From assembly GCA_963703585.1 (NCBI GenBank), contig CAVPEX010000040.1:33945-97944 (forward strand): a stretch of 64,000 nt of DNA. The letters are read 5' to 3'. Of the stretch, positions 4,854 through 33,826 are shown one piece after another; position 1 is the stretch's first letter; each line of letters starts with the position of its first letter. The position numbers were made by a program, and so were the translations under genes. Origin of the DNA: an uncultured Solirubrobacterales bacterium (lineage in GTDB: Bacteria; Actinomycetota; Thermoleophilia; Solirubrobacterales; 70-9). The notes under the pieces were generated by a model, which saw only the letters and a program-made list of their open reading frames with translations, ran no database searches and had not been told where the DNA came from.

Positions 4854-4868
4854 ATATTCCGAGTTAGC
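4835..4868 (+). repeat. 12-bp perfect direct repeat TTCCGAGTTAGC x2, 22 bp apart
   Basis: Copies at 4835-4846 (inside the last codons of GNAT copy 1) and 4857-4868 (just after its stop). They lie between the GNAT 3' end and the 3' end of the ATPase gene. Confidence 0.6.
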
Positions 4869-4890
4869 AGCGCTCGCGTCGTGGCGACGC

Positions 4891-6326: not shown

Positions 6327-7160
6327 ATGGTTTGTGACGTTGCAGGATTGGAGCGGGCCGAGTGCCGCTTCCGCGCCGACATCTGGAGGGCCGCGCCGAT
6401 AGATGCGGTGATCGAGGCGGGCGTCCAGATGCAATGGTTCGGGCCGCTGCTGGCGACGGTGTTCGCCGATCTACCCGAGATCGCCGGCCTGAACGTGATT
6501 CAGGGCGCGGCGGAGCCGGGGGCGCTCGGGGACGGGCACCTCCGCGAGGCGATCGAGTGGACGAGAGAGTGGGAAGTCGACTACGTCGTTCCGGTGGCGT
6601 CAGACCGCCCCGACACCGAGCGGGCGGAGGCGTGGCTCGCGGGGCAGGGCTACGAGCAGGGCGGAGTCGTGCGGAAGTATGTTCGCGGGGCGTCGCGCCC
6701 GAGCTGGCGGGACGCGCCGGGCGTCGAGGTTCACAAGCTTGCGCCGCGCGAGACGGAAGGGATGAGCTACCTCGCCGCTGAGAGCCTGGGGCTTCCCGAC
6801 AGCGTCGGGTTCCTCTTCTGCGACCTGCCGGAACTGCCGAACTGGCACTGCTATGTCGCCCAGTTGGACGGCCTCGAGGTCGCCTGCGGCTCGATGCTGC
6901 TCGTCGACGGGATCGCGATCCTGGGCCTCGACGCCACCGCCGAGCAGGCCCGTGGCCGCGGCTGCCACAGCGCGCTCCTGGCGCGCCGCCTCGAGGACGC
7001 CGCCAAGGCCGGCTGCCACACGGTGCTGGCCGAGGCCTGCGACGAACCCGGGAACGGTGGCCTGGCGGCGGTTCGGAACCTGCACCGGGCGGGCTTCGTG
7101 GAAGCAGGGCGCAGCGTCACCTGGCGGCGGCCGGTCGGCATCTCCGAGTTCGCTGGATAG
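6327..7160 (+). CDS. GNAT family N-acetyltransferase, paralog 2 (intact)
   Basis: 277-aa ORF. The C-terminal half has an acetyl-CoA-binding-type motif (QARGRGCHSALLARRLEDAAKAGC) and NLHRAGFVE. About three quarters of residues match copy 1 by eye. Confidence 0.85.
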   Translation: MVCDVAGLERAECRFRADIWRAAPIDAVIEAGVQMQWFGPLLATVFADLPEIAGLNVIQGAAEPGALGDGHLREAIEWTREWEVDYVVPVASDRPDTERAEAWLAGQGYEQGGVVRKYVRGASRPSWRDAPGVEVHKLAPRETEGMSYLAAESLGLPDSVGFLFCDLPELPNWHCYVAQLDGLEVACGSMLLVDGIAILGLDATAEQARGRGCHSALLARRLEDAAKAGCHTVLAEACDEPGNGGLAAVRNLHRAGFVEAGRSVTWRRPVGISEFAG

Positions 7161-8750: not shown

Positions 8751-8793
8751 CTACTCCATCTCCCCTCGGTACGTATACGTTCTCACAACACGC

Positions 8794-11700: not shown

Positions 11701-11851
11701 CGGTCCCGGGCACGCCGACCGAGGTCGGCCGCAGCTTTCCCTCGACCCCGATGCCGACGATCCCGAGGCTGACGATGACCGCGAGAGCGATCGCCAGCGT
11801 AGCCCGCGGGCGTCGCAGGACCAGACGGCCTCCCTGCACGTCCGCGGCCAC
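8794..11851 (-). CDS. MMPL family transporter with a large coiled-coil (YhgE/Pip-like) insert; one apparent frameshift
   Basis: The N-terminal half (11851 down to ~10230) and the C-terminal half (ORF 10227-8794) each contain an MMPL-type transmembrane bundle (...GLALGVDYALLMVSRFREE... and ...GLSIDYAVFLLSRMRESRE...). The frames join at AGAER / AMEALAELDDG, which implies a 1-nt indel near 10228-10233. Confidence 0.85.
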
Positions 11852-11920
11852 GCCGTAAGCGTAGGTCAGCGTCTGGCGGCTGAGTGTGGTGTCCGCTTTA
11901 AGACAGCGGCGACGAGATCC

Positions 11921-12430
11921 TCAAGCCGCCTGCGGCAGGTACTGCTGCCAGGCTTCCGGGATCTTCGGGCTGGCTACCTGGATGAAGACCGTCGGCGGCG
12001 GGGCCTTGGGCGAGTTCTTGGGGTGCATCTGGATCTCGCGGGGGAGGCGGTTGCCCTTGCGGCGGTTGCAGCTGGCGCAGGCGGCGACGATGTTCTCCCA
12101 GACCGATTTGCCGCCGCGGCTGCGGGGGATGACGTGGTCGACGGTGAGGCCGGACTTGGTCGAGCCGCAGTACTGGCAGGTCCAGGAGTCCCGGGCGAGG
12201 ACGGCGCGGCGGGTGATCTTGCGGCGGTGCGCCTCGCGGGGGATCTTCACGTAGCTGACGAGGCGGATCACGTCGGGCCGCTCCAGCGTCATGTGCTCGG
12301 AGTGCAGGGCGGCGCCTTCGCGCTGCTCCAAGAGCTCGGCCTTTTCCTTCAGCAGCAGCACAGCGGCGCGTCTCAGCGTGCAAACGTTGATCGGCTCATA
12401 CGTCGCATTGAGAACCAGCACCCTGGCCAT
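11921..12430 (-). CDS. HNH endonuclease family protein
   Basis: 169-aa ORF from ATG (12430) MARVLVLNATYEPINV.... HNH/zinc motif CQYCG...DHVIPRSRGG...NIVAACASCNRRKG. Confidence 0.85.
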   Translation of the reverse strand: MARVLVLNATYEPINVCTLRRAAVLLLKEKAELLEQREGAALHSEHMTLERPDVIRLVSYVKIPREAHRRKITRRAVLARDSWTCQYCGSTKSGLTVDHVIPRSRGGKSVWENIVAACASCNRRKGNRLPREIQMHPKNSPKAPPPTVFIQVASPKIPEAWQQYLPQAA

Positions 12431-12459
12431 GGTGCTCAGGATTGTAGGGATGCGCGGCG

Positions 12460-13293
12460 CTATCCCGTGGGATAGGAGCCGAGAACGCGCACGGACTCGG
12501 CCTTGGAGCGGAGCGCGGCGATCGCCTCGGCGACGGGCGCGTCGGTCTCCGCGCCCTCGAGATCGCAGAAGAACATGTAGCGGCCGAGGCCCTGGCGCAG
12601 CGGCCGCGACTCGATCCTGGTCAGGTTGATCCCGCGGCTCGAGAACTCGGCGAGCGCGTCGACGAGCGCCCCCGGGTGGTCCTCGCCGAGCTCGGAGAAG
12701 ACGAGCGAGGTCTTCCACGGGCCCTCGCCGCTCGGCTCGGTTCCGGCCGGCGCGATCCAGACGAAGCGGGTGACGTTGTCGGAGGAGTCCTCGACCCCCT
12801 CCCTCAGCAGCTCGCAGCCGTAGAGGGTGGCCGCCGCCCGCGCCCCGAGCGCCGCCCAGGGCCGCGCCGACTCGCTCACCATCCGCACCGCCGCCGCGGT
12901 GCTGCTGACGCTGCGAAGTTCGATCTCCGGCAGCTGCTCGCGCAGGAAGCGGGCGCACTGGGCCAGCGGCTGGGGATGGGAGAGGACCGCCTCGACCTCC
13001 TCCATCCGCACCCCGGCGCGGGCGATCAGGTGGACCCGCACGCGGTAGTCGTACTCGCCGACGATCGTCACCGCCTCGACGTCGAAGGCGAGCGTGTCGA
13101 GGGTGACGCGGACGGAGCCCTCGATCGAGTTCTCGACCGGGACCAGGGCGCGGTCGGCCTCGCCCCGCTCGACGGCGAGGATCGCGTCGCGGATCGTCGC
13201 CGTCCGCAGCGGCTCGAAGTCCAGCGCCGAGGCCGCCTCGCCGAGCGCGTCCTCGGTGAAGGTTCCCGCCGGGCCGAGGTAGGCGATCCGCAC
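12460..13293 (-). CDS. pheA: prephenate dehydratase
   Basis: 277 aa. PDT domain (MRIAYLGPAGTFTE...VPVENSIEGSV) followed by an ACT domain (TSLVF...DHPGAL...FSSRGINLTRIESRP). Confidence 0.92.
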   Translation of the reverse strand: MRIAYLGPAGTFTEDALGEAASALDFEPLRTATIRDAILAVERGEADRALVPVENSIEGSVRVTLDTLAFDVEAVTIVGEYDYRVRVHLIARAGVRMEEVEAVLSHPQPLAQCARFLREQLPEIELRSVSSTAAAVRMVSESARPWAALGARAAATLYGCELLREGVEDSSDNVTRFVWIAPAGTEPSGEGPWKTSLVFSELGEDHPGALVDALAEFSSRGINLTRIESRPLRQGLGRYMFFCDLEGAETDAPVAEAIAALRSKAESVRVLGSYPTG

Positions 13294-14271: not shown

Positions 14272-14455
14272 GATCTGCTGACGTTCGGGACGGCGTTTCG
14301 GGCGCTCGCGTCGACGCGGCGCGCGGGGGGCTGAACTCTCCAAGAAAGCGCTCTCCAGGCTGGTTGGCTGGGCGGAGAGTATGACCGCTGGGCATGTCGG
14401 CGCGCGAAGAGGTGCCGCAAACGGCGGTGTTTTTGCAGGGAGGAGCGACAGGGGC

Positions 14456-14902
14456 TCAGATTTGGCTCTCGGGGTCGAGGGTGGTCCGAGCGATGTCCTC
14501 AACCCTGGCGAAGGGCCGCGGGCTTCGACCGAGGCCGGCGGCGAGTTTCGCCACCGCCTCGTACTCGGCATCCGAGAGCGCCGTCCGGTTGGCCTTCTCG
14601 CGACCGTCGATGACTACGACGACCCTTTCGTCCCGCAACCACCGAACGAAGAGCCGGTACAGCCGCTGCCCGTGCCTGTCTCTGATCTCGTGGAGATTCC
14701 TGAGCGGACCCTTCATCGGCCGGTGCATGGTCATGTCGCTCCACGCATCTGGGCCGGTCAGGCGAACCGAGTCGAGGATGTTGAGCAGTTGCTTTGCGAC
14801 GTTCGGGGGGACGCTCCTCAGAAATGCATGGCCCGGGACCGACCTCGACCCGTCGCTGTCATCGAGCAGCCACTCGATCTTCCATTGGTCCCAGGCGGGC
14901 AC
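14456..14902 (-). CDS. HigB / Gp49-like (RelE superfamily) toxin candidate
   Basis: The pattern W-IEWL-DDSDG-SVPGHAFLRSVPPNVAKQLL...GPLRNLHEIRDRHGQRLYRLFVRW...RVVVVIDGREK...SDAEYEAVAKLA matches the Gp49/HigB architecture. A GTG start at 14902 is preferred; the ORF is open to 14983. Confidence 0.65.
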   Translation of the reverse strand: MPAWDQWKIEWLLDDSDGSRSVPGHAFLRSVPPNVAKQLLNILDSVRLTGPDAWSDMTMHRPMKGPLRNLHEIRDRHGQRLYRLFVRWLRDERVVVVIDGREKANRTALSDAEYEAVAKLAAGLGRSPRPFARVEDIARTTLDPESQI

Positions 14903-14943
14903 CTTCCAGTAAGAGCCTCGGGCCAGGCAGTCACCCCAGGCGT

Positions 14944-14961
14944 CGTTGCATAAATGCAACG
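14944..14961. promoter_or_regulatory. operator-like palindrome CGTTGCAT-aa-ATGCAACG in the divergent promoter region
   Basis: Perfect 8-bp arms in an AT-rich stretch between the toxin-like gene (minus strand) and the HigA-like gene (plus strand, ATG 14982). Confidence 0.4.
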
Positions 14962-14981
14962 CAGACGCTAACCTGCGCCGC

Positions 14982-15650
14982 ATGGCAGAGGCATCGACTG
15001 CACACGAGGCGATCGTCCGAGAGTTCGTCTCCGAGCGCGAGCGTCCCGACTACGAGGCCCGGGTTCGGGCCCTCGCGGCGCGCAACCTGCTCCTCTCAAC
15101 TCTTGAGAGAGAGCGCGAGGAGCAGGGCATCGCAAAGAAGGAGCTGGCGGAGAGAACCGGCCTCGAGGCATCCAGCGTTCGCCGCATGCTCACCGCGGAG
15201 ATGGCGAACCCGACGACCGAGACGGCATTCCGCATGCTGGCTGTGATGGGGATCGGGCTGGAGGCGATCCTGCCGTCGGGAGAGCGGGTCGCGATCGTCC
15301 AGGCCCACGGGCCGGCGGGCGAGGCGCGGCGCGGTGAGCTGAACGAAGTCCTCGCGGGCCGTCTGGCCGGAGCCGATGGATCCAGCCCTGGAGCGCGCGC
15401 TCCGGCCAGATTGAGCCGCTGCCCCGACAACGGGCTTCCTCTGATCCGTAGCCACGACCTCGATCCTGGCTCCAAGAACGTCGGCGACAGCCGCGACGGT
15501 CTTCAGCTCGGGATTCACGTCGGCCGTGAAGAACCGGCGCATGCTCGACGGCGCCTTACCGATCGCGCGGGCGAGCTCGGCCTTCGACATGCCCGCCCTC
15601 TCCCGCAGATTGTCGATGCGATGGGTCGGGTGCCGGGCGGGCTCAGCTGA
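14982..15650 (+). CDS. HigA-like XRE-family helix-turn-helix protein (antitoxin candidate); 3' end unresolved
   Basis: MAEASTAHEAIVREFVSE...EEQGIAKKELAERTGLEASSVRRMLTAEMANPTTETAFRMLAVMGIGLEAIL has an N-terminal extension, an HTH and a LGxxLE tail, as in HigA. The frame has no stop until 15650 and there overlaps the convergent HTH gene. The true end is probably earlier. Confidence 0.55.
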   Translation: MAEASTAHEAIVREFVSERERPDYEARVRALAARNLLLSTLEREREEQGIAKKELAERTGLEASSVRRMLTAEMANPTTETAFRMLAVMGIGLEAILPSGERVAIVQAHGPAGEARRGELNEVLAGRLAGADGSSPGARAPARLSRCPDNGLPLIRSHDLDPGSKNVGDSRDGLQLGIHVGREEPAHARRRLTDRAGELGLRHARPLPQIVDAMGRVPGGLS

Positions 15651-15704
15651 GCCCGAGCCTCTGCGCCCAAAGCCTGCGACCGCCGTAGCGACGAACGGCT
15701 TCAT
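15096..15704 (-). CDS. second XRE-family helix-turn-helix protein (HigA-like paralog); both ends uncertain
   Basis: The HTH core RIDNLRERAGMSKAELARAIGKAPSSMRRFFTADVNPELKTVAAVADVLGARIEVVA is encoded at ~15455-15640. The only in-frame start upstream of helix 1 is ATG 15704, which overlaps the upstream gene by ~60 nt. There is no stop in any minus-strand frame before ~15100. Confidence 0.4.
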   Translation of the reverse strand: MKPFVATAVAGFGRRGSGSAEPARHPTHRIDNLRERAGMSKAELARAIGKAPSSMRRFFTADVNPELKTVAAVADVLGARIEVVATDQRKPVVGAAAQSGRSARSRAGSIGSGQTAREDFVQLTAPRLARRPVGLDDRDPLSRRQDRLQPDPHHSQHAECRLGRRVRHLRGEHAANAGCLEAGSLRQLLLCDALLLALSLKS

Positions 15705-15879
15705 AGAGCGCCATCCTGTCTGCGCGGCGAAATTCCTCCACGCTCGGCCAAGACGTCCGGCCGCGGCAGAGGTCTTCGAGTTGCTCCTCGATCCTCTCGT
15801 CGGTCCACTCCCGTGGTCGACCTCCGTGGGACTGTCCGGCGAGGAGGTAGCGGGACGACGAGCCCTTGCCGCGCCGCAC
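15643..15879 (-). CDS. hypothetical protein with a helical WTDERIEEQL...FRRADRMALYEAVRRYGGRRLWAQRLGL domain; possibly 5'-extended to 16024 across a frameshift
   Basis: 78-aa ORF. An upstream ORF (16024 down to ~15880, MPKTRAQTLNMGNWLERFLRGLAEECERVAGKVRELEELGLRV...) joins it with a 1-nt shift near 15880 to give a ~127-aa product. No family name recognised. Confidence 0.5.
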   Translation of the reverse strand: MRRGKGSSSRYLLAGQSHGGRPREWTDERIEEQLEDLCRGRTSWPSVEEFRRADRMALYEAVRRYGGRRLWAQRLGLS

Positions 15880-16115
15880 GACGAGCTGGAGCGCTCACCC
15901 GGAGGCCGAGCTCTTCCAGCTCGCGGACCTTCCCAGCGACTCTTTCGCATTCCTCTGCCAGCCCGCGAAGGAAGCGCTCGAGCCAGTTGCCCATGTTCAG
16001 CGTCTGAGCCCGCGTTTTCGGCATATTTCTCGGCTTCTCGGTACGGCAATCAGGGATAGGTCTCGTCTCAAGATTGAAGGTGTAGCAATCCCTTTTTTAG
16101 AGCCATTTGAAGGCT

Positions 16116-17606
16116 CTCGACTTTCGTGACCTACGCCGCCGCTCGCGGGCGTGACGGTGGGCGGGCCGATATTTGTCGCGGTGAGGGCGCCCGCCCCGCT
16201 CCTTGTCGAAATTCAGCCCGGATCAGCTCGCGGCGCAGGGCGGCGAGGATGTCGAGCATCGAGGGGTCGCGCTTCTGGGAGTACCAGGGCGCCTCTCGCC
16301 GGCGGCGATCGACATCCGCGGCGGGGTCGGCGTGAAGCGCGTACCAGGCGATGGCGAGGCTCTGGCAGATGAGGCCGAAGGGAACGGTGCGCTCGACCGC
16401 CCGCCGCACCCGGTTGCGCGCCTCGCCGACCCCGACCGTCTGCTTGGCGTCCTGGAAGGCGACCTCGATCGACCAGCGATCGGCGTAGCGGGCGACGATC
16501 TCGGCCACTCCCGCCTCGACGTCGGTCGAGATCAGCGCGACCCGGTAGCCCTCGGCGTCGGTGGGCTCGCGCACGATCACAACCCGCACCGCCCGTGGGC
16601 CCAGCACCGAGTGCCAGAGGCCCTCCACGACGAGCGCGCAGATCTCGCCCCGGCCGGGGACCTGGAGGCGCTGCCACTCGCCGGGTGCGGCCCGCGGCTG
16701 CGATCTCAGCGGGGGTGCCGAGCCGCGCCCCCTTCGCCCGCGGCCGCCCGCGGCGGCCGGTCGGCGGCGGCTTGGGGGCGTGGATCACCGCGTTGGATCG
16801 CAGCCTCGAGGTCAGGGTGATGCGATCCGCGCTCGGTGCCATCGCCCTGCAGGCGAAGGCGGAGTCGCCGAGGACGTCGATCCGCCGCTGCGGAAAGCGC
16901 TCTGCGACCAGCCCCACGAGCGCCGCGGCCAGGTCCTGCTGGGAGGGCCGCCGGCCGGGATTCGGGTTCGCCTCGGTGGGCTTCGGCGTGGGCAGCCAGA
17001 GCCGAAACAGCACCGGCAGACACCAGGCGCGCTCGCCCAGCGCGGCGATCCGCACCACCAGGCCGACGACGACGAAGCAGTTGCCGAACTTGAAGCCGCC
17101 GCCGGGGGCGGTGGATGAGTCGTGGTGCCAGCTCGTCCCGTGCACCTTGCGGCCCGAGCGGCGGAACACGGAGCCGTCGACGGCGAGCGTGATCGGCGCG
17201 TCGGGACCGACGAAGCGCTCGATCAGGAAGTCGAGCACGAGCAGGCCGAGGCGGTCGGGGCACCAGGCGGCGCGGGCGAAGAAGTCGTGGGCGCGGGAGT
17301 GGTGCAGGCGGCCGGCGAGTCGCGCCGCCTGCCACATCCCGGTGACCGTGCGCTCGCCGACGCGGCCGAGGAAGCCGTGGACCAGCGCCCCGAAGATCTG
17401 GAAGGTCGGGGCGCTGAAGGCGGGGCGGAGCAGGGACAGGATCGCGGTGAGCGAAGATGGCAGGGCGGGCATCGGCGGCGACCTCCTCGAAGGGTGCTTG
17501 GACACATCCCTCGTTCGAGCAAGCCGCCGTTGCTCCCTGCTCCTATCGCACCCTCGACATCGAGAGCCGATCTCCTTCAAGCCGGCCAGAGGTCACGAAA
17601 GTCGAG
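16116..17606 (-). mobile_element. IS701-like insertion sequence, about 1.49 kb
   Basis: Perfect 17-bp terminal inverted repeats CTCGACTTTCGTGACCT (16116-16132) and AGGTCACGAAAGTCGAG (17590-17606) enclose one transposase gene. The flanks are AT-rich intergenic DNA. No target-site duplication was recognised. Confidence 0.8.
16131..17472 (-). pseudogene. IS701-family (DDE) transposase, one frameshift
   Basis: The N-terminal ORF starts at ATG 17472 (MPALPSSLTAILSLLRPAFSAPTFQIFGALV...) and the C-terminal ORF spans 16628-16131 (...RYADRWSIEVAFQDAKQ...). Removing one C from CCC at 16691-16693 restores ...AEIAAAAAPGEWQRLQVPG.... Confidence 0.8.
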
Positions 17607-17722: not shown

Positions 17723-18838
17723 TCAGGGAGCGCCGGTGGGAAGCGGCCAATCGGGCTCGTATCCGAACACCTCGCGCAGCGGCGTCACCCCGTAGCGCTC
17801 GGAGACGATCTCGATGTGATCGGCCGTGACCAGGGCCGGGTGAGAGACCCCGCAGGAGCGGGCCAGCGCCAGCAGCTCGGCCCGCAGCGCCACCAGGTAG
17901 TTGGCCGCCCGGCTCGACTTCAGCTCCGGGTCGAGGCCGCGCATCAGCCAGCGGGACTGGGTGGCGACGCCGGTCGGGCAGCGGCCGGTGTGGCAGCGCT
18001 GGGCCTGGATGCAGCCGATCGCCATCATCGCCTCGCGGCCGACGTTGACCATGTCGCAGCCGAGGCCGAAGGCGAACAGCGCCGCGTCCGGGAAGCCGAG
18101 TCGCCCGGAGCCGATGAAGGTGACCCGCTCGGTCAGCCCGGCACGGGCGAAGCTGCGGTAGACCTGGGCGAAGGCGAGCTTGAACGGCAGCGCCACGTGG
18201 TCGGTGAAGGCGAGCGGCGCGGCGCCGGTGCCGCCCTCGCCGCCGTCGATCGTGAGGAAGTCGGGGCCGCCGCCCGTCGCCTCCATGCGGGTGCTCAGCG
18301 TCTCCCAGAATCCGATCTCGCCGACCGCCGACTTGATCCCGACCGGCAGGCCGGTCGCGGCGGCGATCTCCTCGACGAACTCGATCAGGCCGTCGACGTC
18401 GCCGAAGGCCGAGTGGGCGGGCGGGCTGACGCAGTCGCGGTGGGCCGGCACGCCGCGGCACTCGGCGATCTCCGGCGTCACCTTGACCGCCGGCAGCAGC
18501 CCGCCGAGGCCGGGCTTGGCGCCCTGGGAGAGCTTCGCCTCGATCGCCCCCGTCTCGTCGTCGGTGCCGAAGCCGAAGAGGTTCGCTTCGCCCTCCGAGG
18601 AGGCGGCGATCCAGCGCCGCTGGTCGCGCGAGAACGGGCGCTCCTCGTTGTTGGAGGTGACGATGTACCGGCGCAGCTCCGGGCCGAACCCCTCGAGCAG
18701 GTAGCGGAAGTGCCCGACGAGGGGGAGGTTGCGCAGCACCGCGCGGCGGCGCTGCAGCAGGTCGTAGCCGACTACGCCCGCCAGCGCGGCGGCGGCGACG
18801 CGGACGGTGCGGCCGCGGCGCTCACGCCGCTGTCTCAT
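17723..18838 (-). CDS. FMN-binding glutamate synthase-domain protein (GltB domain 2 family), apparently with an in-frame internal deletion
   Basis: 371 aa. The N-terminal LRNLPLVGHFRYLLEGFGPELRRYI and the C-terminal KLSQGAKPGLGGLLPAVKVTPEIAECRGVP...GGEGGTGAAP...CHTGRCPTGVATQ are typical. The usual central segment is absent at the junction ...FGFGTDDE/TGAIEAKLSQ.... Confidence 0.8.
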   Translation of the reverse strand: MRQRRERRGRTVRVAAAALAGVVGYDLLQRRRAVLRNLPLVGHFRYLLEGFGPELRRYIVTSNNEERPFSRDQRRWIAASSEGEANLFGFGTDDETGAIEAKLSQGAKPGLGGLLPAVKVTPEIAECRGVPAHRDCVSPPAHSAFGDVDGLIEFVEEIAAATGLPVGIKSAVGEIGFWETLSTRMEATGGGPDFLTIDGGEGGTGAAPLAFTDHVALPFKLAFAQVYRSFARAGLTERVTFIGSGRLGFPDAALFAFGLGCDMVNVGREAMMAIGCIQAQRCHTGRCPTGVATQSRWLMRGLDPELKSSRAANYLVALRAELLALARSCGVSHPALVTADHIEIVSERYGVTPLREVFGYEPDWPLPTGAP

Positions 18839-19826
18839 ACCGGATCGCGTTCCCGTCGTCGGCTTCGCGCACCCGGCCTTCGTTGACGAGGATGTCGGCG
18901 TGGCCGATCACCTCGGAGAGGGTGAGGTAGGCCTGGGTGACGGCGACGTTTCCCCAGATCGCCTGGGCCAGCTCGTAGCCGCTGCGGGGGCGCTCCTCGA
19001 TCAGCTTGAAGATCTTCTCCTTGCGGCGGTCGTGGGCGGCGAAGCGGGCGTCGATCAACTCGACGTGGTCGGTGATCGGCTCGCCGTGGCCGGGGAGGAC
19101 GATCTCCGCCGGCATTTCGCGCGTCTTCTTCAGCGACTCGATGTAGGTGACCAGCGCCTGCGGTCGCCGGTCGGAGCCGTCGAGCGGGCGGCTGATCAGC
19201 GGGTTCGAGGAGATGTGGGCGATCAGGTGGTCGGCGGCGATCAGGATGCGGCGCTCGGCGTCCCAGAAGACGGTGTCGGAGGGGCTGTGGCCCGGCCGGT
19301 GCAGGGCCTCCAGGGTGCGGTCGTGGAAGGGGAGGAGCTGGCCGTCCTCGAGCGGCTTGGTGACGCCGACGTGGGAGCCCCAGCCGCGGAAGCCGCGGGA
19401 TACCGTGCGCAGGGCGACGGTGACGTCCTCGGGGATGCCGTTGCGCAGCATCACCTCGACCGCGAAGGCGTCCTCCCGCTCGGCGTCCTCGTCGAAGTCC
19501 GCCAGTCGCTGCTTGGCCGCACCCAGCGCCGCCACCTCGGCGCCGGAGTGCTCGACCAGGATCTCGACCAGGCCGAGGTGGTCGATGTGCTGGTGGGTGA
19601 CGACGATCAGTTCGAGGTCGTCGATCGAGTGGCCCCGCTCGCCGAAGCGGACGCTGAGCTCGTCCAGCGCCTTGCCCGAGTTGGGGCCGGTGTCGACGAG
19701 CGTCAGCGGCTCGTCCTCGATCAGGTAGCAGTTGACCCTGCCGACGGCGAAGGGGGTGGGGATCGCGAGCCGGTGGATGCCCGCCAGCGCGGCCTGCTCC
19801 AGCGCCTGCTCGGGGGTCCCGCTCAC
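18822..19826 (-). CDS. MBL-fold metallo-hydrolase
   Basis: GTG start at 19826 overlaps the upstream stop (GTGA). HxHxDH motif VVTHQHIDHLG. About 334 aa. Confidence 0.85.
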   Translation of the reverse strand: MSGTPEQALEQAALAGIHRLAIPTPFAVGRVNCYLIEDEPLTLVDTGPNSGKALDELSVRFGERGHSIDDLELIVVTHQHIDHLGLVEILVEHSGAEVAALGAAKQRLADFDEDAEREDAFAVEVMLRNGIPEDVTVALRTVSRGFRGWGSHVGVTKPLEDGQLLPFHDRTLEALHRPGHSPSDTVFWDAERRILIAADHLIAHISSNPLISRPLDGSDRRPQALVTYIESLKKTREMPAEIVLPGHGEPITDHVELIDARFAAHDRRKEKIFKLIEERPRSGYELAQAIWGNVAVTQAYLTLSEVIGHADILVNEGRVREADDGNAIRYETAA

Positions 19827-21205
19827 GCCCGGATCAGCCCCAGGACCTGGTCGCGCCTGGCCTCCATGTCCTCGCGCGAGACCAGCGACTCGAGGTTGAG
19901 GCGCAGCAACGGCTCGGTGTTGGAGGGGCGGACGTTGAAATGCCACTCGGGGTAGTCGACGGAGACGCCGTCGAGGCGGGTGATCTCGCCATCGGAGTAG
20001 CGCTCGGCGATCTCCGCCATCTTCGCCTCCTGGTCGGCGACCTCGGAGTTGATCTCGCCGGAGATGAAGTAGCGGGAGCGGAACTCCTCCATCAGCTGGC
20101 CGAGGTTGCGGCCGTCGAGCGAGAGCAGCTCCAGCACCAGCAGCGCCGGGATCGTCCCCGAGTCGGCGTTCCAGAAGTCGCGGAAGTAGTAGTGACCGGA
20201 GACCTCGCCGCCGAAGGCGGCGCCCTCCTCGCGCATCCGCGCCTTGAAGAAGGCGTGGCCGACGCGGGAGAGGTCCGAGCGGCCGCCCTCGGCGGCGACC
20301 AGGTCCGGCACGGCGCGGCTGGAGCGGGGGTCGTAGAGGATCGTCGCGCCGGGGTTCTTGCGCAGCACCGAGCGCGCCAGCAGGGCGCAGATGAAGTCGC
20401 CGTCGCAGAACTCGCCGCTGCCGTCGATGAAGAAGCAGCGGTCGGCGTCGCCGTCCCAGGCGATCCCGAGGTCGGCGCCGGCGGCCCGCACGCGCTCCAT
20501 GATCAGCGCCCGGTTCTCCGGCAGCAGCGGGTTCGGCTCGTGGTCGGGGAACTCGCCGTCGGGCTCGAAGTACATCTCCTCGAGGTCGAGCGGCAGCTTC
20601 TCCAGGATCGGGCCGACCATCGGCCCGGCCATGCCGTTGCCGCCGTCGACCACCAGCTTCATCGGCTTCACGGCCGCCGCGTCGATGAAGGAGAGCGCGT
20701 GCGCCCGGTATTCGTCCCAGACGTCGACCTCCTCCAGCGAGCCGCCGCCCGGGGCGTGCCCGAGGCCGGCCTCGATCTCGGCCCGCACGTCGCCGATGCC
20801 GGCGTCGCCGGAGAGCGGCAGCGCCCCCTCGCGCACCAGCTTCACCCCGGTGTAGGCCTTGGGGTTGTGGGAGGCGGTGACCATCGCGCCGCCGTCGAGC
20901 TGGCGCGAGCCGACCAGGTGGTAGAGCATCTCGGTCGCGACCATGCCGGCATCGAGCACGGTGGCGCCCTCGAAGATCAGGCCGTCGCGCAGCTCCGCCG
21001 CCATCGCCGGCGCGGTCAGCCGCATGTCGCGGCCCAGCCCGACCCGCAGCTCGCCGGTCTGCTTGCCACGCAGCCGCGCCAGCACCCGGGCGAAGGCGCG
21101 GCCGATCGCGTGCGCCGTCGTCTCATCCATCTCGGTGCCGTGCAGGCCGCGGATGTCGTAGGCCTTGAAGATGCCCGGCGGCGCCAGCGGCGCGGCCTCG
21201 CTCAC
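19823..21205 (-). CDS. phosphomannomutase / phosphoglucomutase
   Basis: 460 aa from GTG 21205. IFKAYDIRG, active-site loop TASHNPKAYTG, metal loop DGDADR, and GGEVSGHYYF. Confidence 0.9.
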   Translation of the reverse strand: MSEAAPLAPPGIFKAYDIRGLHGTEMDETTAHAIGRAFARVLARLRGKQTGELRVGLGRDMRLTAPAMAAELRDGLIFEGATVLDAGMVATEMLYHLVGSRQLDGGAMVTASHNPKAYTGVKLVREGALPLSGDAGIGDVRAEIEAGLGHAPGGGSLEEVDVWDEYRAHALSFIDAAAVKPMKLVVDGGNGMAGPMVGPILEKLPLDLEEMYFEPDGEFPDHEPNPLLPENRALIMERVRAAGADLGIAWDGDADRCFFIDGSGEFCDGDFICALLARSVLRKNPGATILYDPRSSRAVPDLVAAEGGRSDLSRVGHAFFKARMREEGAAFGGEVSGHYYFRDFWNADSGTIPALLVLELLSLDGRNLGQLMEEFRSRYFISGEINSEVADQEAKMAEIAERYSDGEITRLDGVSVDYPEWHFNVRPSNTEPLLRLNLESLVSREDMEARRDQVLGLIRA

Positions 21206-21693
21206 GCGAATGCTCCCTTCAGCGCTTCGTAGCTCTGCTCGATCGTCTGCGGCATCACTTTGGTGTCGGCGACGACCGGCATGAAGTTGTTGTCGCCCGC
21301 CCAGCGCGGCACCACGTGGACGTGGATGTGGTGCTCGACCCCGGCGCCGGCGATCCGGCCCTGGTTGAGGCCGACGTTGAAGCCGTGCGGGCTGTAGACG
21401 TCCTCGAGCCTGTCCATCGCCCGCTGCGCCATCGCCATCATCTCCGCCAGCGTCTCGGGTGGGATCTCCTGCAGGCGGCCGATGTGCTCGTAAGGGGCGA
21501 CCATCAGGTGCCCGTTCGTGTACGGGAAGAGGTTGAGGATGAGGAAGCAGCGCTCGCCGCGGTGGACGATCAGGCTTGCCTCGTCGTCTTCCGCCGCCGG
21601 CTTGGCGCAGAAGATGCACTCCTCCTCGATGTCCTTGGACGCGTCCTTCACGTAGGTGAGGCGCCAGGGCGCCCAGATGCGGAAATTTGCCAC
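21202..21693 (-). CDS. HIT family protein
   Basis: 163 aa. Histidine triad HHIHVHVVPR. CxxC-like IFCAK near the N-terminus. Confidence 0.9.
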   Translation of the reverse strand: MANFRIWAPWRLTYVKDASKDIEEECIFCAKPAAEDDEASLIVHRGERCFLILNLFPYTNGHLMVAPYEHIGRLQEIPPETLAEMMAMAQRAMDRLEDVYSPHGFNVGLNQGRIAGAGVEHHIHVHVVPRWAGDNNFMPVVADTKVMPQTIEQSYEALKGAFA

Positions 21694-21794: not shown

Positions 21795-22814
21795 TTATAG
21801 CCAGCCGCGGCGGCGGAAGTAGGCGACCATGCCGACAGGATCACGAGCATCGCGCCGAGCACGACCCAGAACGCGGTCGTGTCGCCCTCGCCGGGGACGT
21901 GACAGTTCATCCCCCAGATGCTCGCGATCAGGGTCAGCGGCAGGACGATGACGCTGATCGAGGTCAGCACGCGGAGGATGTCGTTGACGCGGTGGGAGAT
22001 CACCGACTCGTTGGTCTCCTCGAGCGCCTCGGCGACCTCCTTGTAGTTCTCGAGCATGTCCCAGATCCGCTCGTGGGCGTCGACGATGTCGTCGAAGTAG
22101 ATCTCGAGGTCGATGTCGGGGGCGAGGTAGCGCTGCTTGACCTTCTCGAGGTCGCGCAGCACCGGCCGCTGCGGCCGGATCACCTTGCGGAAGTTGATGA
22201 TCTCCTGCTTGACGTTGGAGATGTCGCGCACGATCTCCTCGGAGCGGCCCTCGAAGATGTCGTCCTCGAGCGCGTCGAGCTTGTTGCCGATCTTGCGCAG
22301 CATCGGGAAGCAGTAGTCGAAGCTGTCGTCGACGATCCGGTAGAGCAGGTAGCCGGAGCCGCGGGAGAAGAGCTGCTCGCGCAGCTCCTCCTTCGCCGCG
22401 GCAGCGCTCGAACAGGTACTCGATCGGCTGCAGCGGCTGGTTGGGGATCGTGATCAGGTAGTCGGGGCCGACGAACAGGTCGAGCTCGCCGGTGCCGAGG
22501 CGGCCGGCGGCGCGGTCGAAGACCGGCAGGTGGAGGACGATGAAGAGGTAGTCGTCGTAGATGTCGATCTTCGGTCGCTGGTTGCGCGAGAGGACGTCCT
22601 CGATGTCGAGCGCGTGGAAGTCGTAGTTCTCTTCGAGCCAGGTCCGCTCCAGCGCCCCGGGGCGCTCGATGTTGACCCAGCGCAGGCCGGCGGCATCGAT
22701 CTGCTCGACGTGCGGGGTCTGGGGCTCAGGCGCGGCGGGGGGCCCGACGAGCTCGCCGCGGCGACTTGCGCGCCGTAGCCTCGGCTTCGGAAGGTTCGGC
22801 ATCGGCCGGGCCAA
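21795..22814 (-). pseudogene. corA: CorA-type magnesium/cobalt transporter with two frameshifts
   Basis: Three frame segments. (1) 22814 down to ~22410: ...YDFHALDIEDVLSRNQRPKIDIYDDYLFIVLH.... (2) ~22405 down to ~21840: AAAAKEELREQLF...MLRKIGNKLDALEDDIF...IWGMNCHVPGEG, which contains the GMN motif. (3) ~21838 down to 21795: MVAYFRRRGWL. The indels lie near 22405-22412 and 21835-21840. Confidence 0.8.
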
Positions 22815-22915
22815 TCGTCTCGTCGCGCAGGGGGCTCATCGTGGACCTAGGTTAGCCGTCAGGCGTCCCTGCAAACGTCCGCGCTGCGGCTGGTAAGGTT
22901 CTTGCCACATAAGCG

Positions 22916-23033
22916 CCACATCTAGAGGGGTGGAGGGACTGGCCCAGTGAAGCCCCGGCAACCACTTCGAGACCACGGTTCGGAGGGAGGTGCCAAGTCC
23001 AGCAGGTCGCAGCTCAAGACCTGGAAGATGTGG
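22916..23033 (+). promoter_or_regulatory. SAM-I (S-box) riboswitch aptamer
   Basis: P1 CCACATCT...AGATGTGG encloses the conserved core AGAGGGGTGGAGGGACTGGCCCAGTGAAGCCCCGGCAACC...GGTGCCAAGTCCAGCAGG...CCTGGAAG. This matches the S-box consensus from memory. Confidence 0.88.
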
Positions 23034-23050
23034 GGGACGTCCGATCCGGA

Positions 23051-23082
23051 CCTCTGCCTCCTCCAGAAGGCGGAGGTTTTTT
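23051..23082 (+). terminator. intrinsic terminator (riboswitch expression platform)
   Basis: 8-bp stem CCTCTGCC / GGCGGAGG with one G-U pair, a 10-nt loop, then TTTTTT at 23077-23082. It sits 26 nt upstream of the ATG at 23108. Confidence 0.8.
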
Positions 23083-23107
23083 CGTTGAGGATCGAAAAGA
23101 GGATCGA

Positions 23108-24347
23108 ATGTCAGTTGAGAACCTGAAGTGCAAGGAATGCGGCACGACCTACGAGCTCGACGCCAGCTACGTCTGCGAGAACTGCTTCGGGCCGCTCGAG
23201 GTCTCCTACGACTATAGCTCCGGGCTCGACGCCGAATCGGCGAAGGCGCAAGATCCAGGCCGGCTCGAACGGCATCTGGCGATACGCCGACTTCCTTCCG
23301 TTCACGGGACGCCCGCACGACCCGCTCGAGCCGGGGCTGACGCCGTTGGTCAAGGCCGACCGCCTCGCCGAGCAGCTCGGCCTGGGCGAGGTCTGGATCA
23401 AGAACGACGCCGCCAACCCGACCCACTCGTTCAAGGACCGGGTTGTCGCGGTCGCCGTCGCCAAGGCCCAGGAGCTCGGCTTCGAGACCGTCGCCTGCGC
23501 CTCGACCGGGAACCTCGCCAACGCGGTCGCCGCCCACGCCGCGGCTGCCGGCCTGGACTCCTACGTCTTCGTGCCCGTCGAACCTCGAGGAGCAGAAGCT
23601 GCTCGCGACCGGCGATCTACGGCACCAACCTGATCGGCGTCAACGGCAACTACGACGACGTCAACCGGCTCTGCACGGAGCTGGCCGCAGACGCGCCCCT
23701 GGGCCTTCGTCAACGTCAACCTGCGCCCCTACTACGCCGAGGGCTCGAAGACGCTCGCCTACGAGACCGTCGAGCAGCTCGGCTGGACGCTGCCCGACCG
23801 CGTCGTCTCGCCGATCGCCTCGGGCTCGCTCTTCACCAAGCTCGGCCGCGGCTTCCAGGAGTGGCTCGACCTCGGCCTCGTCGAGGGCGAACTGCCCGTC
23901 TTCAACGGCGCCCAGGCGGAGGGCTGCTCCCCGGTGGCGACGGCCTTCGCCGAGGGCTGGGACGTCTGCAAGCCGCAGAAGCCGGACACGATCGCCAAGA
24001 GCCTGGCGATCGGCGACCCCGCCGACGGCCCCTACGCGCTCGAGCAGCGCGCGGCGCAGACCGGCGGCGCGCATCGACGCGGTCACCGACGAGGAGATCC
24101 GCGACGGCGATCAAGCTGCTGGCGCGAGACGACCGGCGATCTTCACCGAGACCGCCGGCGGCGTCACCGTCGGCGTCCTCCGCAAGCTGGCCGAGCGCGG
24201 CGAGCTCGCGGCCGGCGAGCGGGTCGTCGTCTACATCACCGGCGAGGGGCTGAAGACCCTCGACGCGACCCGCGATAGCGTTCCAGATGCACGAGATCGA
24301 TCCGACCCTCGACGAGCTTCGAGGCCGAGTTCGAACGCCGGAGATAA
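23108..24347 (+). pseudogene. threonine synthase-like PLP enzyme with N-terminal zinc ribbon; about nine frameshifts
   Basis: N-terminal CKECG...CENC. PLP-lysine region NPTHSFKDRV, then ...ACASTGNLANAVAAHAAAAGL..., ...NVNLRPYYAEGSKTLAYE..., ...AQAEGCSPVATAF... and ...IFTETAGGVTVGVLRKL.... The homologous sequence hops between all three frames at about 23249, 23575, 23611, 23698, 24070, 24105, 24130, 24280 and 24318. TAA stop at 24345-24347. Confidence 0.8.
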
Positions 24348-24354
24348 ACCGCTG

Positions 24355-24628
24355 ATGGCAGTGACCGTGAAGATCCCGCCCAGCTACGCGCCGCCACCGG
24401 CGGCGAGGCCGAGGTCGAGGTCGACGGCTCGACCGTCGGCGAGGTGCTCGACGCGGTCTTCGATCCGCCCACGGCGACCTGCGCGAGCGGATCACCGAGG
24501 ACGGTGACCTGCGCCGCTTCGTCAACGTCTACGTCTCCGGCGAGGACATCCGCTTCCAGGAGGGGCTCGACACCGCCATCGACGACGGCGACGAGATAAC
24601 GATCCTTCCAGCCGTAGCGGGCGGCTGA
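24355..24628 (+). pseudogene. MoaD/ThiS-family sulfur-carrier-like protein ending in Gly-Gly; two frameshifts
   Basis: Reconstructed as [37 protein letters not shown]/..[52 protein letters not shown]. Shifts lie near 24379 and 24465. TGA stop at 24626-24628. Confidence 0.7.
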
Positions 24629-25362
24629 AACCTCCCGTAGTCATCCTCTGCGGCGGGCGCGGGACGCGGCTGCGGGAGCGGACCGAGTCGGTGCCGAAGG
24701 CGCTGGTCGAGATCGGCGGGCGGCCGATCCTCTGGCACGTGGTCCAGATCTACGCCGCCCAGGGGTTCGAGCGGTTCCTGCTGGCCACCGGGTACCTGGG
24801 CGAGGCGGTCGAGGAGTTCGCCGCGGCTGAGCGCTGGCCGGACGGGGTCGAGGTCGAGTGCGTCGACACCGGCCTCGACACGCCGACCGGCGGGCGCATC
24901 GCCCTGCTGGCGGACCGGCTCGGCGACGAACCCTTCTGCACCACCTACGCCGACGGGGTCGCCGACGTCGACCTCGGGACGCTGCTCGAGTTCCACCGCG
25001 AGGGCGGGGCGCTGGCGACGCTGACCGTGGTCCGGCCCGACCTGCAGTGGGGCGTCGCCGAGCTCGACGGCGACAGCGTCAGCGGCTTCGTCGAGAAGCC
25101 GCGCAGCGAGGACTGGATCAACGGCGGCTTCCTCTGCTTCGAGCCGGGGGTGCTGGAATACCTGGACCGCGACAGCGTGCTGGAGCGCGAGCCGCTGGCG
25201 CGCCTGGCTGCCGACGGCGAGCTGCGGGCCTACCGCCACGAGGGCTTCTGGGACTGCATGGACACCTACAAGGACGCGGTCGTCCTCAACGACCTCTGGA
25301 GCGGCGGCGAAGCTCCCTGGCGGATCTGGGACACGGCGGCGGCGGAGCGGGCCCGGCGATGA
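24625..25362 (+). CDS. rfbF: glucose-1-phosphate cytidylyltransferase; start codon unclear
   Basis: Strong colinearity with RfbF: ...[17 protein letters not shown]...[11 protein letters not shown]...[10 protein letters not shown]...[13 protein letters not shown]...APW. The nucleotide-binding loop [12 protein letters not shown] lies upstream of the first GTG (24691). The only candidate start before it is CTG at 24625. Confidence 0.85.
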
Positions 25363-26330
25363 AGCGCGTCCTCGTCACCGGCGCCCACGGCTTCGTCGCC
25401 TCGCGGCTGGCGCGGGGCCTGCTCGAGCGCGGCGACGCAGTTACGGCACTGGACCTGGCCAAGCCGGGGCGCTCGGGCCTGGCGCTGCAGGGGATCGAGG
25501 CCGAGGTCGAGCTGGTCGAGGCCGACCTGCGCGACGCTGGCACCGTCGGCGCGACGATCGAGGCGGGCGAGTTCGACTCGGTCTTCCACCTCGGCGCGCA
25601 GACCCTGGTCGGCCCGGCGATGGCGGACCCGGCGGCGACCTTCGAGACCAACGTGCGCGGGACCTGGACCCTGCTCGAGGCCTGCCGCCGCGTTGACGTG
25701 CCGGCGGTCGTCGTCGCCTCCTCCGACAAGGCATACGGCCCCAGCGAGGAGCTGCCCTACCGCGAGGACATGCGGCTGCAGCCGGCCTCGCCGTATGAGG
25801 CGAGCAAGGCGGCGGCCGACGCGATCGCGCTCAGCTACCGCCCCGCCTTCGGCCTGCCGGTGGCGGTCACCCGCTTCGCCAACATCTACGGCGGCGGCGA
25901 CCTCAACTTCTCGCGCCTGGTCCCGGAAGCGATCGCCGCCGTCCTCGACGGCCGCCGGCCGCAGATCCGCTCCGACGGCAGCCCCGAACGCGACCTGCTC
26001 TACGTCGAGGACGCGGTCGCCGCCTACTTCGCGGTCGAAGGCGCGGTCGGCGCCGGCGGGCCCGGGGCCGGGGAGGCGTTCAACGCGGGCGGGGAGCGCC
26101 CCCACTCGGTGGCCGAGATCCTGGAGACGATCTCTGCGGTCTCGGGCGGCGGCCTCGACCCCGAGTTCCTCGGCAGCGGCAACCCGGAGGGGGAGATCGA
26201 CCGCCAGTACGTCGACTCGGCGAAGCTGCGCGAGATGACCGGCTGGGCACCGGCGGTCTCCCTGCGCGACGGCCTGATCCGGACCCTGGACTGGTACCGC
26301 GATCACCCCGAGGTCAGACCGGCGGTCTGA
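25359..26330 (+). CDS. NAD-dependent epimerase/dehydratase family protein (sugar-nucleotide 4,6-dehydratase-like)
   Basis: ATG overlaps the rfbF stop (ATGA). Rossmann motif VTGAHGFVASRL and catalytic SSDKAYG...YEASKAAAD (YxxxK). Confidence 0.88.
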   Translation: MKRVLVTGAHGFVASRLARGLLERGDAVTALDLAKPGRSGLALQGIEAEVELVEADLRDAGTVGATIEAGEFDSVFHLGAQTLVGPAMADPAATFETNVRGTWTLLEACRRVDVPAVVVASSDKAYGPSEELPYREDMRLQPASPYEASKAAADAIALSYRPAFGLPVAVTRFANIYGGGDLNFSRLVPEAIAAVLDGRRPQIRSDGSPERDLLYVEDAVAAYFAVEGAVGAGGPGAGEAFNAGGERPHSVAEILETISAVSGGGLDPEFLGSGNPEGEIDRQYVDSAKLREMTGWAPAVSLRDGLIRTLDWYRDHPEVRPAV

Positions 26331-29766: not shown

Positions 29767-29840
29767 CGCGCCCGGCAGGATTCGAACCTGCGACTTCCAC
29801 CTCCGGAGGGTGGCGCTCTATCCAGCTGAGCTACGGGCGC
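29767..29840 (-). tRNA. tRNA-Arg (anticodon CCG)
   Basis: The reverse complement folds by hand into a cloverleaf. Acceptor GCGCCCG/CGGGCGC, D arm GCUC/GAGC, anticodon stem CCACC/GGUGG with loop CUCCGGA, T arm GCAGG-UUCGAAU-CCUGC. 74 nt; CCA is not encoded. Confidence 0.95.
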
Positions 29841-30918: not shown

Positions 30919-32474
<1,556 letters not shown>

Positions 32475-32478
<4 letters not shown>

Positions 32479-33826
32479 GTTTCACCGACGTGCTCGACGT
32501 CCGTCCCGGCGAGGACGCGAACCTGGTCCTGCGCCGGGCGACGGTGCTGGACCCGGTCGCCGGCATCGACGCCGTCCACGACGTCGTCGTCCGCGGCGGC
32601 GAGATCGCCGCGCTGGCCGCTCCGGGCGAGGCCGACGCCGACGGCGCCGAGGTGGTCGAGGCGGAGGGGCTGCACGCCTTCCCGGCCTTCTTCGATCCCC
32701 ACGTCCACCTCCGCACCCCCGGCCACGAGCACAAAGAGGACGTCGAGACCGGCACCCGCGCCGCCGCCGCCGGCGGCTACTGCGGCATCCTCGCGATGGC
32801 CAACACCGAGCCGCCGGTCTCCACCGCCGCCGACATCTCCGCCCTGCGCGAGCAGGCGCGCGCCGGCGCCTCGGTCCCGGTCGGCTTCCTCGCCACGGTC
32901 ACCCGCGACATGAAGGGCGAGGAGCTGACCGAGATGGTCGAGCTGCGCGAAGCCGGCGCCGTCGGCTTCTCCGACGACGGCCTGCCGATCCGCAGCGCCC
33001 GGGTCATGCGCCGCGCCCTCCAGTACCAGCGCCTCTGCGGCGGCACGATCGCCCTGCACGAGGAGGACCCCGAGCTCTCCGGCGACGGCGTCATGCACGA
33101 GGGCCCGGTCTCGGCCGCGGTCGGCCTCGCCGGGATCCCCTCCGTCTCGGAGTCGACGATGATCGCCCGCGACGCCGCCCTCGCCGGCTACGAGGAGGCG
33201 CGGATCCACGTCCAGCACCTCTCCGCGGCCGAGTCGGTCGAGGTCGTCCGCCGCCGCCAAGGCCGCCGGCGTGCAGATCAGCGCCGAGGCCACGCCCGCA
33301 CCACCTCTGCCTCACCGACGAGCAGGTGCGCAGCCTCGACCGCTGGCGCTTCAAGATGAACCCGCCGCTGCGCCGCGAGTCCGACCGCCAGGCGCTGATC
33401 GACGGCCTCCTCGACGGCACGATCGAGTGCGTCGCCACCGATCACGCGCCGCACCAGGCCGAGGAAAAGGACGTCCCCTTCGAGCAGGCGGCGATGGGCG
33501 TCACCGGCCTCGAGAGCGCCTTCGCCGCCCTCCACACCGAGCTGGTCCTGCCCGGCACGATCGAGCTGGCGCTGCTGGTCGAGCGGATGGCGGGCGGCGC
33601 GGCTCCGTTCGGGATCGAGCGGCCGAGCCTGGCACCGGGCTCGGAGGCCAACGTCGCCCTCTGCGACCTCGCCGCCGAGTGGACGGTCGGGGAGGACGGC
33701 TACGAGAGCCGCTCGCAGAACTCCTGGTGCGCCGGCCACAAGCTGACCGGCCGCGTACTCGTCACGGTCGCCGCCGGCCAGGTCGCCTTCCGCCTGCGCA
33801 GCTTCAGCCTCGGGGTCGCCGCATGA
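32475..33826 (+). pseudogene. pyrC: dihydroorotase, two frameshifts near the 3' third
   Basis: GTG overlaps the pyrB stop (GTGA). DPHVHLRTPG and ...ILAMANT... are intact up to ~33250. Then AKAAGVQISAEATP appears in a second frame and HHLCLTDEQ...ATDHAPH...GVTGLE... in a third, running to TGA 33824-33826. Confidence 0.85.

Follow-up and report, generated by a model that had tools for sequence, protein, structure and literature searches.

In the CysO-CysM system of Mycobacterium tuberculosis (3DWG) a protein thiocarboxylate gives its sulfur to a fold-type-II enzyme dependent on pyridoxal 5'-phosphate (PLP), which acts on an O-phospho amino acid. In Wolinella succinogenes the sulfur of homocysteine comes from the thiocarboxylate of a ThiS-like protein via the HcyS/HcyF/HcyD-MetY route, which uses the fold-type-I O-acetylhomoserine sulfhydrylase MetY, an acylated homoserine and a carrier that needs proteolytic trimming. 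The closest described system is that of Streptomyces albulus, for which GapMind 2026 (bioRxiv 10.1101/2024.10.14.618325) summarises (after Hasebe et al. 2024, Appl Environ Microbiol 90:e01247-24) a pathway consisting of the carrier MetO, the ligase MoeZ, the hydrolase Mec and MetM. MetM is described there as a homolog of threonine synthase (ThrC) that is “often misannotated” as that enzyme, and PMC12172450 reports a riboswitch for S-adenosylmethionine (SAM) upstream of S. albulus metM. Here, we describe a probable locus of this type in a 64-kb window, i.e., the whole stretch of 64,000 nucleotides (nt) analysed, from an uncultured Solirubrobacterales bacterium (contig CAVPEX010000040.1). The initial annotation of this DNA had mentioned a metM/metO pair from Streptomyces, which indeed exists, and had proposed thiocarboxylate-dependent homocysteine synthesis from O-phosphohomoserine, a proposal that homology and genomic context support. 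It is thus probable that the locus is a SAM-repressed metM-metO operon, which would produce homocysteine from O-phosphohomoserine via a carrier thiocarboxylate in this member of the Solirubrobacterales (Actinomycetota, Thermoleophilia). The type of pathway is already known, and what is new is its occurrence in Thermoleophilia.

Similar to S. albulus, a ThrC-homologous PLP enzyme is encoded beside a small sulfur carrier with a SAM riboswitch upstream, MoeZ and Mec do not belong to the gene pair, and annotations routinely list the enzyme as threonine synthase. The locus differs from that of S. albulus in its host, which is a Solirubrobacterales metagenome-assembled genome (MAG), and in two sugar-nucleotide genes that abut metO in the lineage of the window. 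The nearest homolog from Actinomycetes that was compared with the window enzyme is that of Nonomuraea, with 54% identity. The locus consists of the following features:

22915-23034, + strand: SAM-I (S-box) riboswitch aptamer
23048-23082, + strand: intrinsic terminator (expression platform) with the stem ACCUCUGCC/GGCGGAGGU at 23050-23077 and T6 at 23077-23082
23097-23103 and 23108-23110, + strand: ribosome-binding site AAGAGGA and ATG of the metM-like gene, read from the sequence
23108-24355, + strand: metM-like gene (gene 1) for a ThrC-homologous PLP enzyme of ~410 residues, with 10 single-base insertions and 1 two-base insertion
23129-23185, + strand: N-terminal four-cysteine zinc-ribbon motif CKEC...CENC (C8, C11, C23, C26)
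23433-23435, + strand: codon for K109, which is predicted to form the Schiff base with PLP (motif SFKDRVV) and aligns with the SFKDRG lysine in solved threonine synthases
24355-24628, + strand: metO-like gene (gene 2) for a 90-residue sulfur carrier of the ThiS/MoaD family, with one 1-nt deletion and one 2-nt insertion

The S-box aptamer that had been recognised in the initial annotation is recovered by the covariance model RF00162 over its full length (model positions 1-108 of 108), with 85.5 bits compared to a gathering score of 44.4 and an E-value of 8e-19, and it is the sole riboswitch found by Rfam in the window. Free folding of 22910-23110 reproduces the P1-closed aptamer with its four helices P1-P4. 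The terminator claimed upstream of the two-gene unit is likewise present, as seen in a terminator scan and in minimum-free-energy folds. It has a GC-rich stem of 9 bp that runs into the T6 tract, is located 26 nt ahead of the ATG, and is kept in relatives with compensatory changes (CCUCUGCUC/GCAGAGG, CCUCCGCC/GGCGGAGG). The leader shows no notable difference from other terminating SAM-I riboswitches of RF00162, in which a full-length aptamer is also followed by an intrinsic terminator ahead of a methionine-pathway operon. The orthologous aptamer is found in L001 and L002, the two relatives with intact genes that serve as references throughout, and the called starts of their enzyme genes align with the ATG of the window. 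Among the Actinomycetota, 26 loci were tested for SAM-I (L001, L002, 16 Solirubrobacterales, seven other Actinomycetota, and Nonomuraea), and all 26 have it upstream of the enzyme gene; it lies just upstream at all 16 sampled Solirubrobacterales loci and at all seven loci from other Actinomycetota. SAM-I is present at none of the nine cyanobacterial loci tested, which agrees with the remark in PMC12172450 that the Microcystis homolog, 51.6% identical to S. albulus MetM, has no riboswitch. A possible antiterminator, in which the G-rich segment 22925-22936 would pair with the 5' arm of the terminator, appears in the nascent-transcript fold only.

A different spacing is seen in the more distant Solirubrobacterales leaders L028, L031, L032, L034, L035, L038, L040, L044, L046, L048-L052, L054, and L055, where the terminator hairpin ends 7-12 nt before the start codon and its 3' arm GGCGGAGG (the GGAGG arm) coincides with the expected Shine-Dalgarno site. 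Because the terminator comes so close to the start codon, the GGAGG arm probably masks the ribosome-binding site as well, which suggests combined transcriptional and translational control in these more distant leaders.

As assembled, the region downstream of the leader contains no single long open reading frame (ORF), and the three forward frames jointly carry two recognisable proteins. Both proteins considered in the following are frame-corrected, stitched translations. Corrected gene 1 encodes 411 residues with no stop inside the frame, and intact orthologs match its product at 87-88% identity; intact homologs of 410 residues occur in many Solirubrobacterales MAGs with 84-88% identity. A protein search with the window enzyme gave exclusively Solirubrobacterales proteins at an identity of at least 84%, and the named cluster members among the 50%-identity representatives are one from Micromonosporaceae and one from Thermoplasmatota. 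With matches to Pfam PALP (1.5e-68) and TIGR00260 (276.6 bits) and with four conserved cysteines, the protein fits the ThrC-fold PLP enzyme with a CxxC...CxxC ribbon that had been read from the uncorrected sequence. The predicted fold is unambiguous from the matches to solved structures, all of which are threonine synthases, with 6CGQ ranking first (1.2e-59), followed by 2ZSJ, 2D1F, 1UIM, and 1E5X. The alignment to solved ThrC covers residues 56-393, and therefore the first ~55 residues with the ribbon are extra relative to these enzymes. Conservation was scored over 38 diverse homologs with identities down to 34%: the ribbon cysteines C8, C23, and C26 are invariant, and both C11 and the lysine K109 are conserved in at least 90%. 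The ribbon region gives a weak match to NinF/Zn-ribbon in Pfam and may be the docking site for the carrier protein. The ribbon alone is not diagnostic, since distant ribbon-bearing homologs, e.g., haloarchaeal genes annotated as thrC, fall outside the clade of carrier-linked enzymes. At the junction of the two genes, removal of the 2-nt insertion at 24338 leads to a TGA stop at 24353-24355 that overlaps the ATG of metO as TGATG, as in L002; uncorrected, the last frame of gene 1 stops at 24345-24347.

The second gene encodes the GG-ended beta-grasp protein of about 90 residues that had been predicted, as its 90-residue product matches PF02597 (ThiS, 5.4e-16) and ends with AVAGG right before the stop. 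It scores 74.4 bits with NF041918 and 59.7 bits with moaD_arch. Among solved structures it is closest to 4n6e_B (1.8e-25), followed by the M. tuberculosis chain 3dwg_C (1.7e-21); both are CysO thiocarboxylate carriers, the former from Amycolatopsis orientalis. A role as MoaD of molybdopterin synthesis was considered and rejected, because the protein reaches only 17 bits with the TIGR01682 equivalog model (cutoff 66), no moa or moe genes are present in the window, and the conserved neighbor is a ThrC-like gene. The carrier is thus homologous to that of the CysO-CysM system and shares its PAVAGG end, but its partner is ThrC-like instead of CysM-like, the putative substrate is O-phosphohomoserine and not O-phosphoserine, no mec gene is adjacent in the window, and regulation is by a SAM riboswitch. 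The likeness to CysO leads to the alternative that the pair performs other thiocarboxylate chemistry, either the synthesis of cysteine from O-phosphoserine as with CysM/CysO or that of a different SAM-controlled sulfur compound. The nearest solved chains 4n6e_B and 3dwg_C are of the CysO type involved in cysteine and thiosugar synthesis, and cysteate synthase is an example of a ThrC fold turned to O-phosphoserine, for which gene 1 gives a weak match. However, this match to TIGR03844 amounts to 80 bits at a cutoff of 325, and the cysteine synthase models of CysM/CysK remain at about 40 bits (TIGR01136 40.5 bits, cutoff 344; NF008735 39.7 bits, cutoff 413). Moreover, a SAM riboswitch speaks for the methionine/SAM branch, and O-phosphohomoserine is what the characterised homologous pair converts to homocysteine, according to bioRxiv 10.1101/2024.10.14.618325. 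Other chemistry is therefore very unlikely.

The link between enzyme and carrier is seen far beyond the window. In one scan of the GTDB species genomes, 80 loci with 59-88% identity to the window enzyme are among the matches listed, mainly from Thermoleophilia, together with Miltoncostaeaceae, one Acidimicrobiia MAG, and nine cyanobacteria; the closest of them are 87-88% identical. A carrier gene ending with PAVAGG lies directly downstream of the enzyme gene at 77 of these 80 listed loci, so that the possibility raised initially, that the GG protein belongs to a molybdopterin operon, gives way to a tie with the ThrC-like gene. Carrier-linked loci span Thermoleophilia, Acidimicrobiia, and cyanobacteria among the matches listed, plus Nonomuraea. 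Even the cyanobacterial homologs (L073-L081), with 60% identity to the window enzyme, are paired with a carrier. No carrier was found at three listed loci, two of which run into the contig end, and the third is L036. At L036 no carrier match is found at 5206-5334 though the contig continues, and an NTP-transferase match follows ~130 nt past the enzyme match. At two Nostoc loci the heterocyst small RNA family RF02596 follows the carrier gene at a distance of a few hundred bases (L075 5815-5870, L080 6329-6384).

The synteny of the window is shared by L001 and L002, where Lactamase_B, PGM, HIT, and CorA on the minus strand are followed by riboswitch, enzyme, carrier, NTP-transferase, and epimerase. 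The order riboswitch-enzyme-carrier recurs in dozens of other genomes, and the arrangement in the window is therefore not due to chance. When the remainder of the window was scanned with Pfam, neither a second PALP enzyme nor ThiF/MoeZ, rhodanese, JAMM, or further methionine genes were detected, in line with the initial observation for MoeZ/ThiF and JAMM. The 4-kb flanks of six relatives contain only unrelated genes and no MoeZ or JAMM genes. With no ThiF/MoeZ, JAMM, or methionine genes in the window or in the flanks of the relatives, the conserved unit comprises the leader and the two genes.

Among more distant Actinomycetota, the unit was found in PLSDB record NZ_LT559118.1 (L083, L084), an 11.85-Mb “plasmid I” of the cultured actinomycete Nonomuraea gerenzanensis with 10 annotated features, which is evidently the chromosome. 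It carries SAM-I with 68.7 bits, the 54% identical enzyme homolog mentioned above, and a carrier of 91 residues. A separate canonical ThrC, 56% identical to that of Bacillus subtilis, is encoded elsewhere, and three ThrC-like loci are present in this record at E <= 1e-25. A metM from Streptomyces was found neither in PLSDB nor among the matches listed in the GTDB scan.

In a neighbor-joining tree, the window enzyme falls into one clade with all carrier-linked proteins, which have the motif SFKDRVV and 55-88% identity to it; the leaf L071 is to be disregarded, as its ORF was taken from a wrong frame and gives 20% identity. The ThrC proteins of B. subtilis, Aquifex, and Nonomuraea have SFKDRGM, are 35-37% identical to the window enzyme, and are located outside of its clade. 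Clustering with housekeeping ThrC, which, for an enzyme that is the only thrC of its genome, had been named initially as the outcome that would speak against the proposed function, was thus not observed, and the window enzyme is no member of canonical ThrC by clade, motif, or identity. The 37% identity measured here between B. subtilis ThrC and the window enzyme is close to the 33% given for B. subtilis ThrC and MetM (bioRxiv 10.64898/2026.09.15.751699). Canonical ThrC (B. subtilis 6CGQ, Aquifex 2ZSJ, M. tuberculosis 2D1F) and the window enzyme have the fold, the PLP lysine, and presumably O-phosphohomoserine in common. The window enzyme differs in its four-cysteine N-terminal extension of ~55 residues, in SFKDRVV, in the neighboring carrier gene, and in the SAM riboswitch.

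The operon would work as follows. When SAM is abundant, it would bind the SAM-I aptamer and lock helix P1, and the downstream hairpin with its U-tract would then end transcription ahead of the genes. Under SAM limitation, the terminator would be blocked by a different pairing, and metM-metO would be transcribed. The MetM-type enzyme of the threonine synthase fold can be assumed to activate O-phospho-L-homoserine with PLP and to eliminate the phosphate. Rather than water, it would then take up sulfur from the Gly-Gly thiocarboxylate of the MetO-type carrier, giving L-homocysteine, from which methionine and SAM derive. A MoeZ-type enzyme encoded elsewhere presumably charges the carrier by adenylation and sulfuration. 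Compared with the HcyS route of Wolinella, the enzyme has the ThrC fold, and the carrier already ends in GG, so that C-terminal trimming would be unneeded.

Several points weigh against this assignment. First, the 276.6 bits of gene 1 with TIGR00260, the equivalog model of thrC, exceed the cutoff of 167.1, and sequence models alone would name the protein ThrC. Second, MoeZ, Mec, thrB, hom, a second thrC, and metE/metH were not found in the 64-kb window. Third, the antiterminator is weakly defined, as a fold of the local 3' region alone retains the terminator. Furthermore, the orthology to MetM/MetO of S. albulus is indirect and would run via a chain of intermediates: the window enzyme shares its clade with the Nonomuraea homolog (54% identity) and the cyanobacterial homologs (60%), and the Microcystis homolog is in turn 51.6% identical to S. 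albulus MetM. Finally, both genes are unreadable as assembled, and we infer their intactness in vivo from the pattern of the frameshifts described below.

The first of these points is the core of the view that gene 1 is an ordinary threonine synthase next to an unrelated MoaD/ThiS gene, with the riboswitch tuning the flux between threonine and methionine at the O-phosphohomoserine branch. Apart from the model score, all solved relatives are threonine synthases, the homologs are annotated as “threonine synthase” in public records, and a cyanobacterial homolog is reported to have threonine synthase and deaminase activity in vitro (PMC12172450). However, a protein with 35-37% identity to bona fide ThrC that belongs to a separate clade with its own active-site motif does not fit this view. 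Neither does the GG carrier that is joined to the enzyme gene in an operon at 77 of the 80 listed loci from Thermoleophilia, Acidimicrobiia, and cyanobacteria, nor the SAM-I leader that is kept at all Actinomycetota loci sampled. In addition, Nonomuraea has a separate canonical ThrC besides the MetM-like enzyme, and MetM is commonly misannotated as ThrC, according to bioRxiv 10.1101/2024.10.14.618325. It is therefore extremely unlikely that the enzyme is a plain threonine synthase, and a function as MetM remains the preferred assignment.

The frameshifts were called from a three-way DNA alignment of the window with L001 and L002, and a frame tracer based on the G+C content at third codon positions (GC3) was used as a second method. 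That both genes are frameshifted, as originally stated, was borne out by the alignment: metM-metO contains 13 frameshifting indels in 1.5 kb compared to both relatives, namely ten 1-nt insertions, two 2-nt insertions, and one 1-nt deletion, none of which is in a homopolymer. Three further in-frame indels of 3 nt are probably real differences. CorA has one additional 1-nt insertion at 22390. The alignment gave no frameshifting indels in the flanks 18831-21693 and 24640-26330, and neighboring genes such as PGM, HIT, NTP-transferase, and epimerase each keep a single open frame. The frameshifts are concentrated in two patches of ~2 kb, 22390-24470 and 31070-33300, with clean sequence between them, and the frame tracer agrees with these patches. 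The second patch (31.07-33.3 kb), which covers pyrR, pyrB, and pyrC, has eight 1-nt insertions, two 2-nt insertions, and one 1-nt deletion. Isolated frame breaks lie near 40667, 45260, and 53168, and the Pfam domains of gmk, infB, and pnp are split across frames. The substitution divergence from the relatives is 0.857-0.866 inside the patches and 0.836-0.874 outside.

Natural decay in bacteria is deletion-biased. The damage is dominated by insertions, substitution levels are normal, and core genes are also hit, which together argues for assembly error and not for gene decay; the patches look like locally unpolished or gap-filled consensus. With the frameshifts as assembly errors, the living bacterium most likely has an intact operon. 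Programmed frameshifting in metM-metO was rejected on the indel pattern. That the operon is a decaying pseudogene pair with real frameshifts and a lost pathway, for which the 13 indels in 1.5 kb between genes that stay in frame on both sides could speak, is highly improbable, since 1-2 nt were inserted outside of homopolymers in 12 of the 13 cases, the metM-metO patch has a divergence of 0.866 within that of its clean neighbors, the corrected enzyme is free of stops and close to intact orthologs, and a like insertion patch in pyrR/pyrB/pyrC as well as the breaks in infB, pnp, and gmk affect core genes that are unlikely to be dead. For this assembly, clustered frameshifts should hence be taken as local insertion errors and not as pseudogenes.

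Downstream of metO, the context of the operon is as follows:

24625-26330, + strand: NTP-transferase and NAD-epimerase/dehydratase genes, assigned from the Pfam families of the L001 and L002 orthologs

Both genes abut metO in the window, and the corresponding four genes of L002 share 1-4 nt at their junctions. No terminator-like site is predicted between 24628 and 26980. Within this stretch, the window carries CTG where the TTG start of L002 stands. The linkage to these genes is confined to the nearest clade among the matches listed (L001-L027, L036, L042), and therefore the sugar-nucleotide genes are not part of the conserved unit. Given these abutting or overlapping genes, the lack of a predicted terminator up to 26980, and a linkage that holds throughout the nearest clade, the SAM-I leader could in this lineage control a transcript of four genes, i.e., metM, metO, a sugar-1-phosphate nucleotidyltransferase, and an NAD-dependent epimerase/dehydratase. 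We regard such a transcript as unlikely; if it exists, a nucleotide-sugar step would be under SAM control.

Elsewhere in the window, one RNA gene was found:

29767-29840, - strand: tRNA gene (69.4 bits) with the anticodon loop CUCCGGA

The loop suggests tRNA Arg-CCG. In L001 and L002 a tRNA is called on the same strand and in a similar place after a hydrolase gene. In the region 14300-17500, ~1.9 kb are without the GC3 coding signal of the genome. This region has a small HTH_3 ORF at 14946-15650, which overlaps an opposite-strand ORF of 175 residues without a Pfam match, and the stretch without this signal adjoins a DDE_5 transposase (16213-17580); it is probably a mobile insertion. Two closely similar ORFs at 4100-4892 and 6349-7102 (...EAGVQM..FGP.L.TVFADLP...) are arranged around an opposite-strand DUF4143 gene (4893-5602). 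The first of them is frame-broken near 4660, and neither copy has a Pfam match at 1e-6. On the minus strand, 8771-12472 contains two successive MMPL-family segments in different frames, with an HNH endonuclease domain at the upstream end of the second, which may be one frame-broken transporter gene or two genes.

The main value of the locus lies in re-annotation. Models of the NCBI style label the enzyme as “threonine synthase” and the carrier as “SAMP1”, and with the enzyme so labelled, reconstructions of methionine synthesis in Thermoleophilia and many soil Actinomycetota would show a false gap together with a false second thrC. In our sample, MetM can be told from ThrC by the PAVAGG carrier immediately downstream, the motif SFKDRVV, and, in Actinomycetota, the SAM-I leader. 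With the loci surveyed, the riboswitch-metM-metO unit is now seen in Thermoleophilia, Acidimicrobiia, and Streptosporangiales as well.

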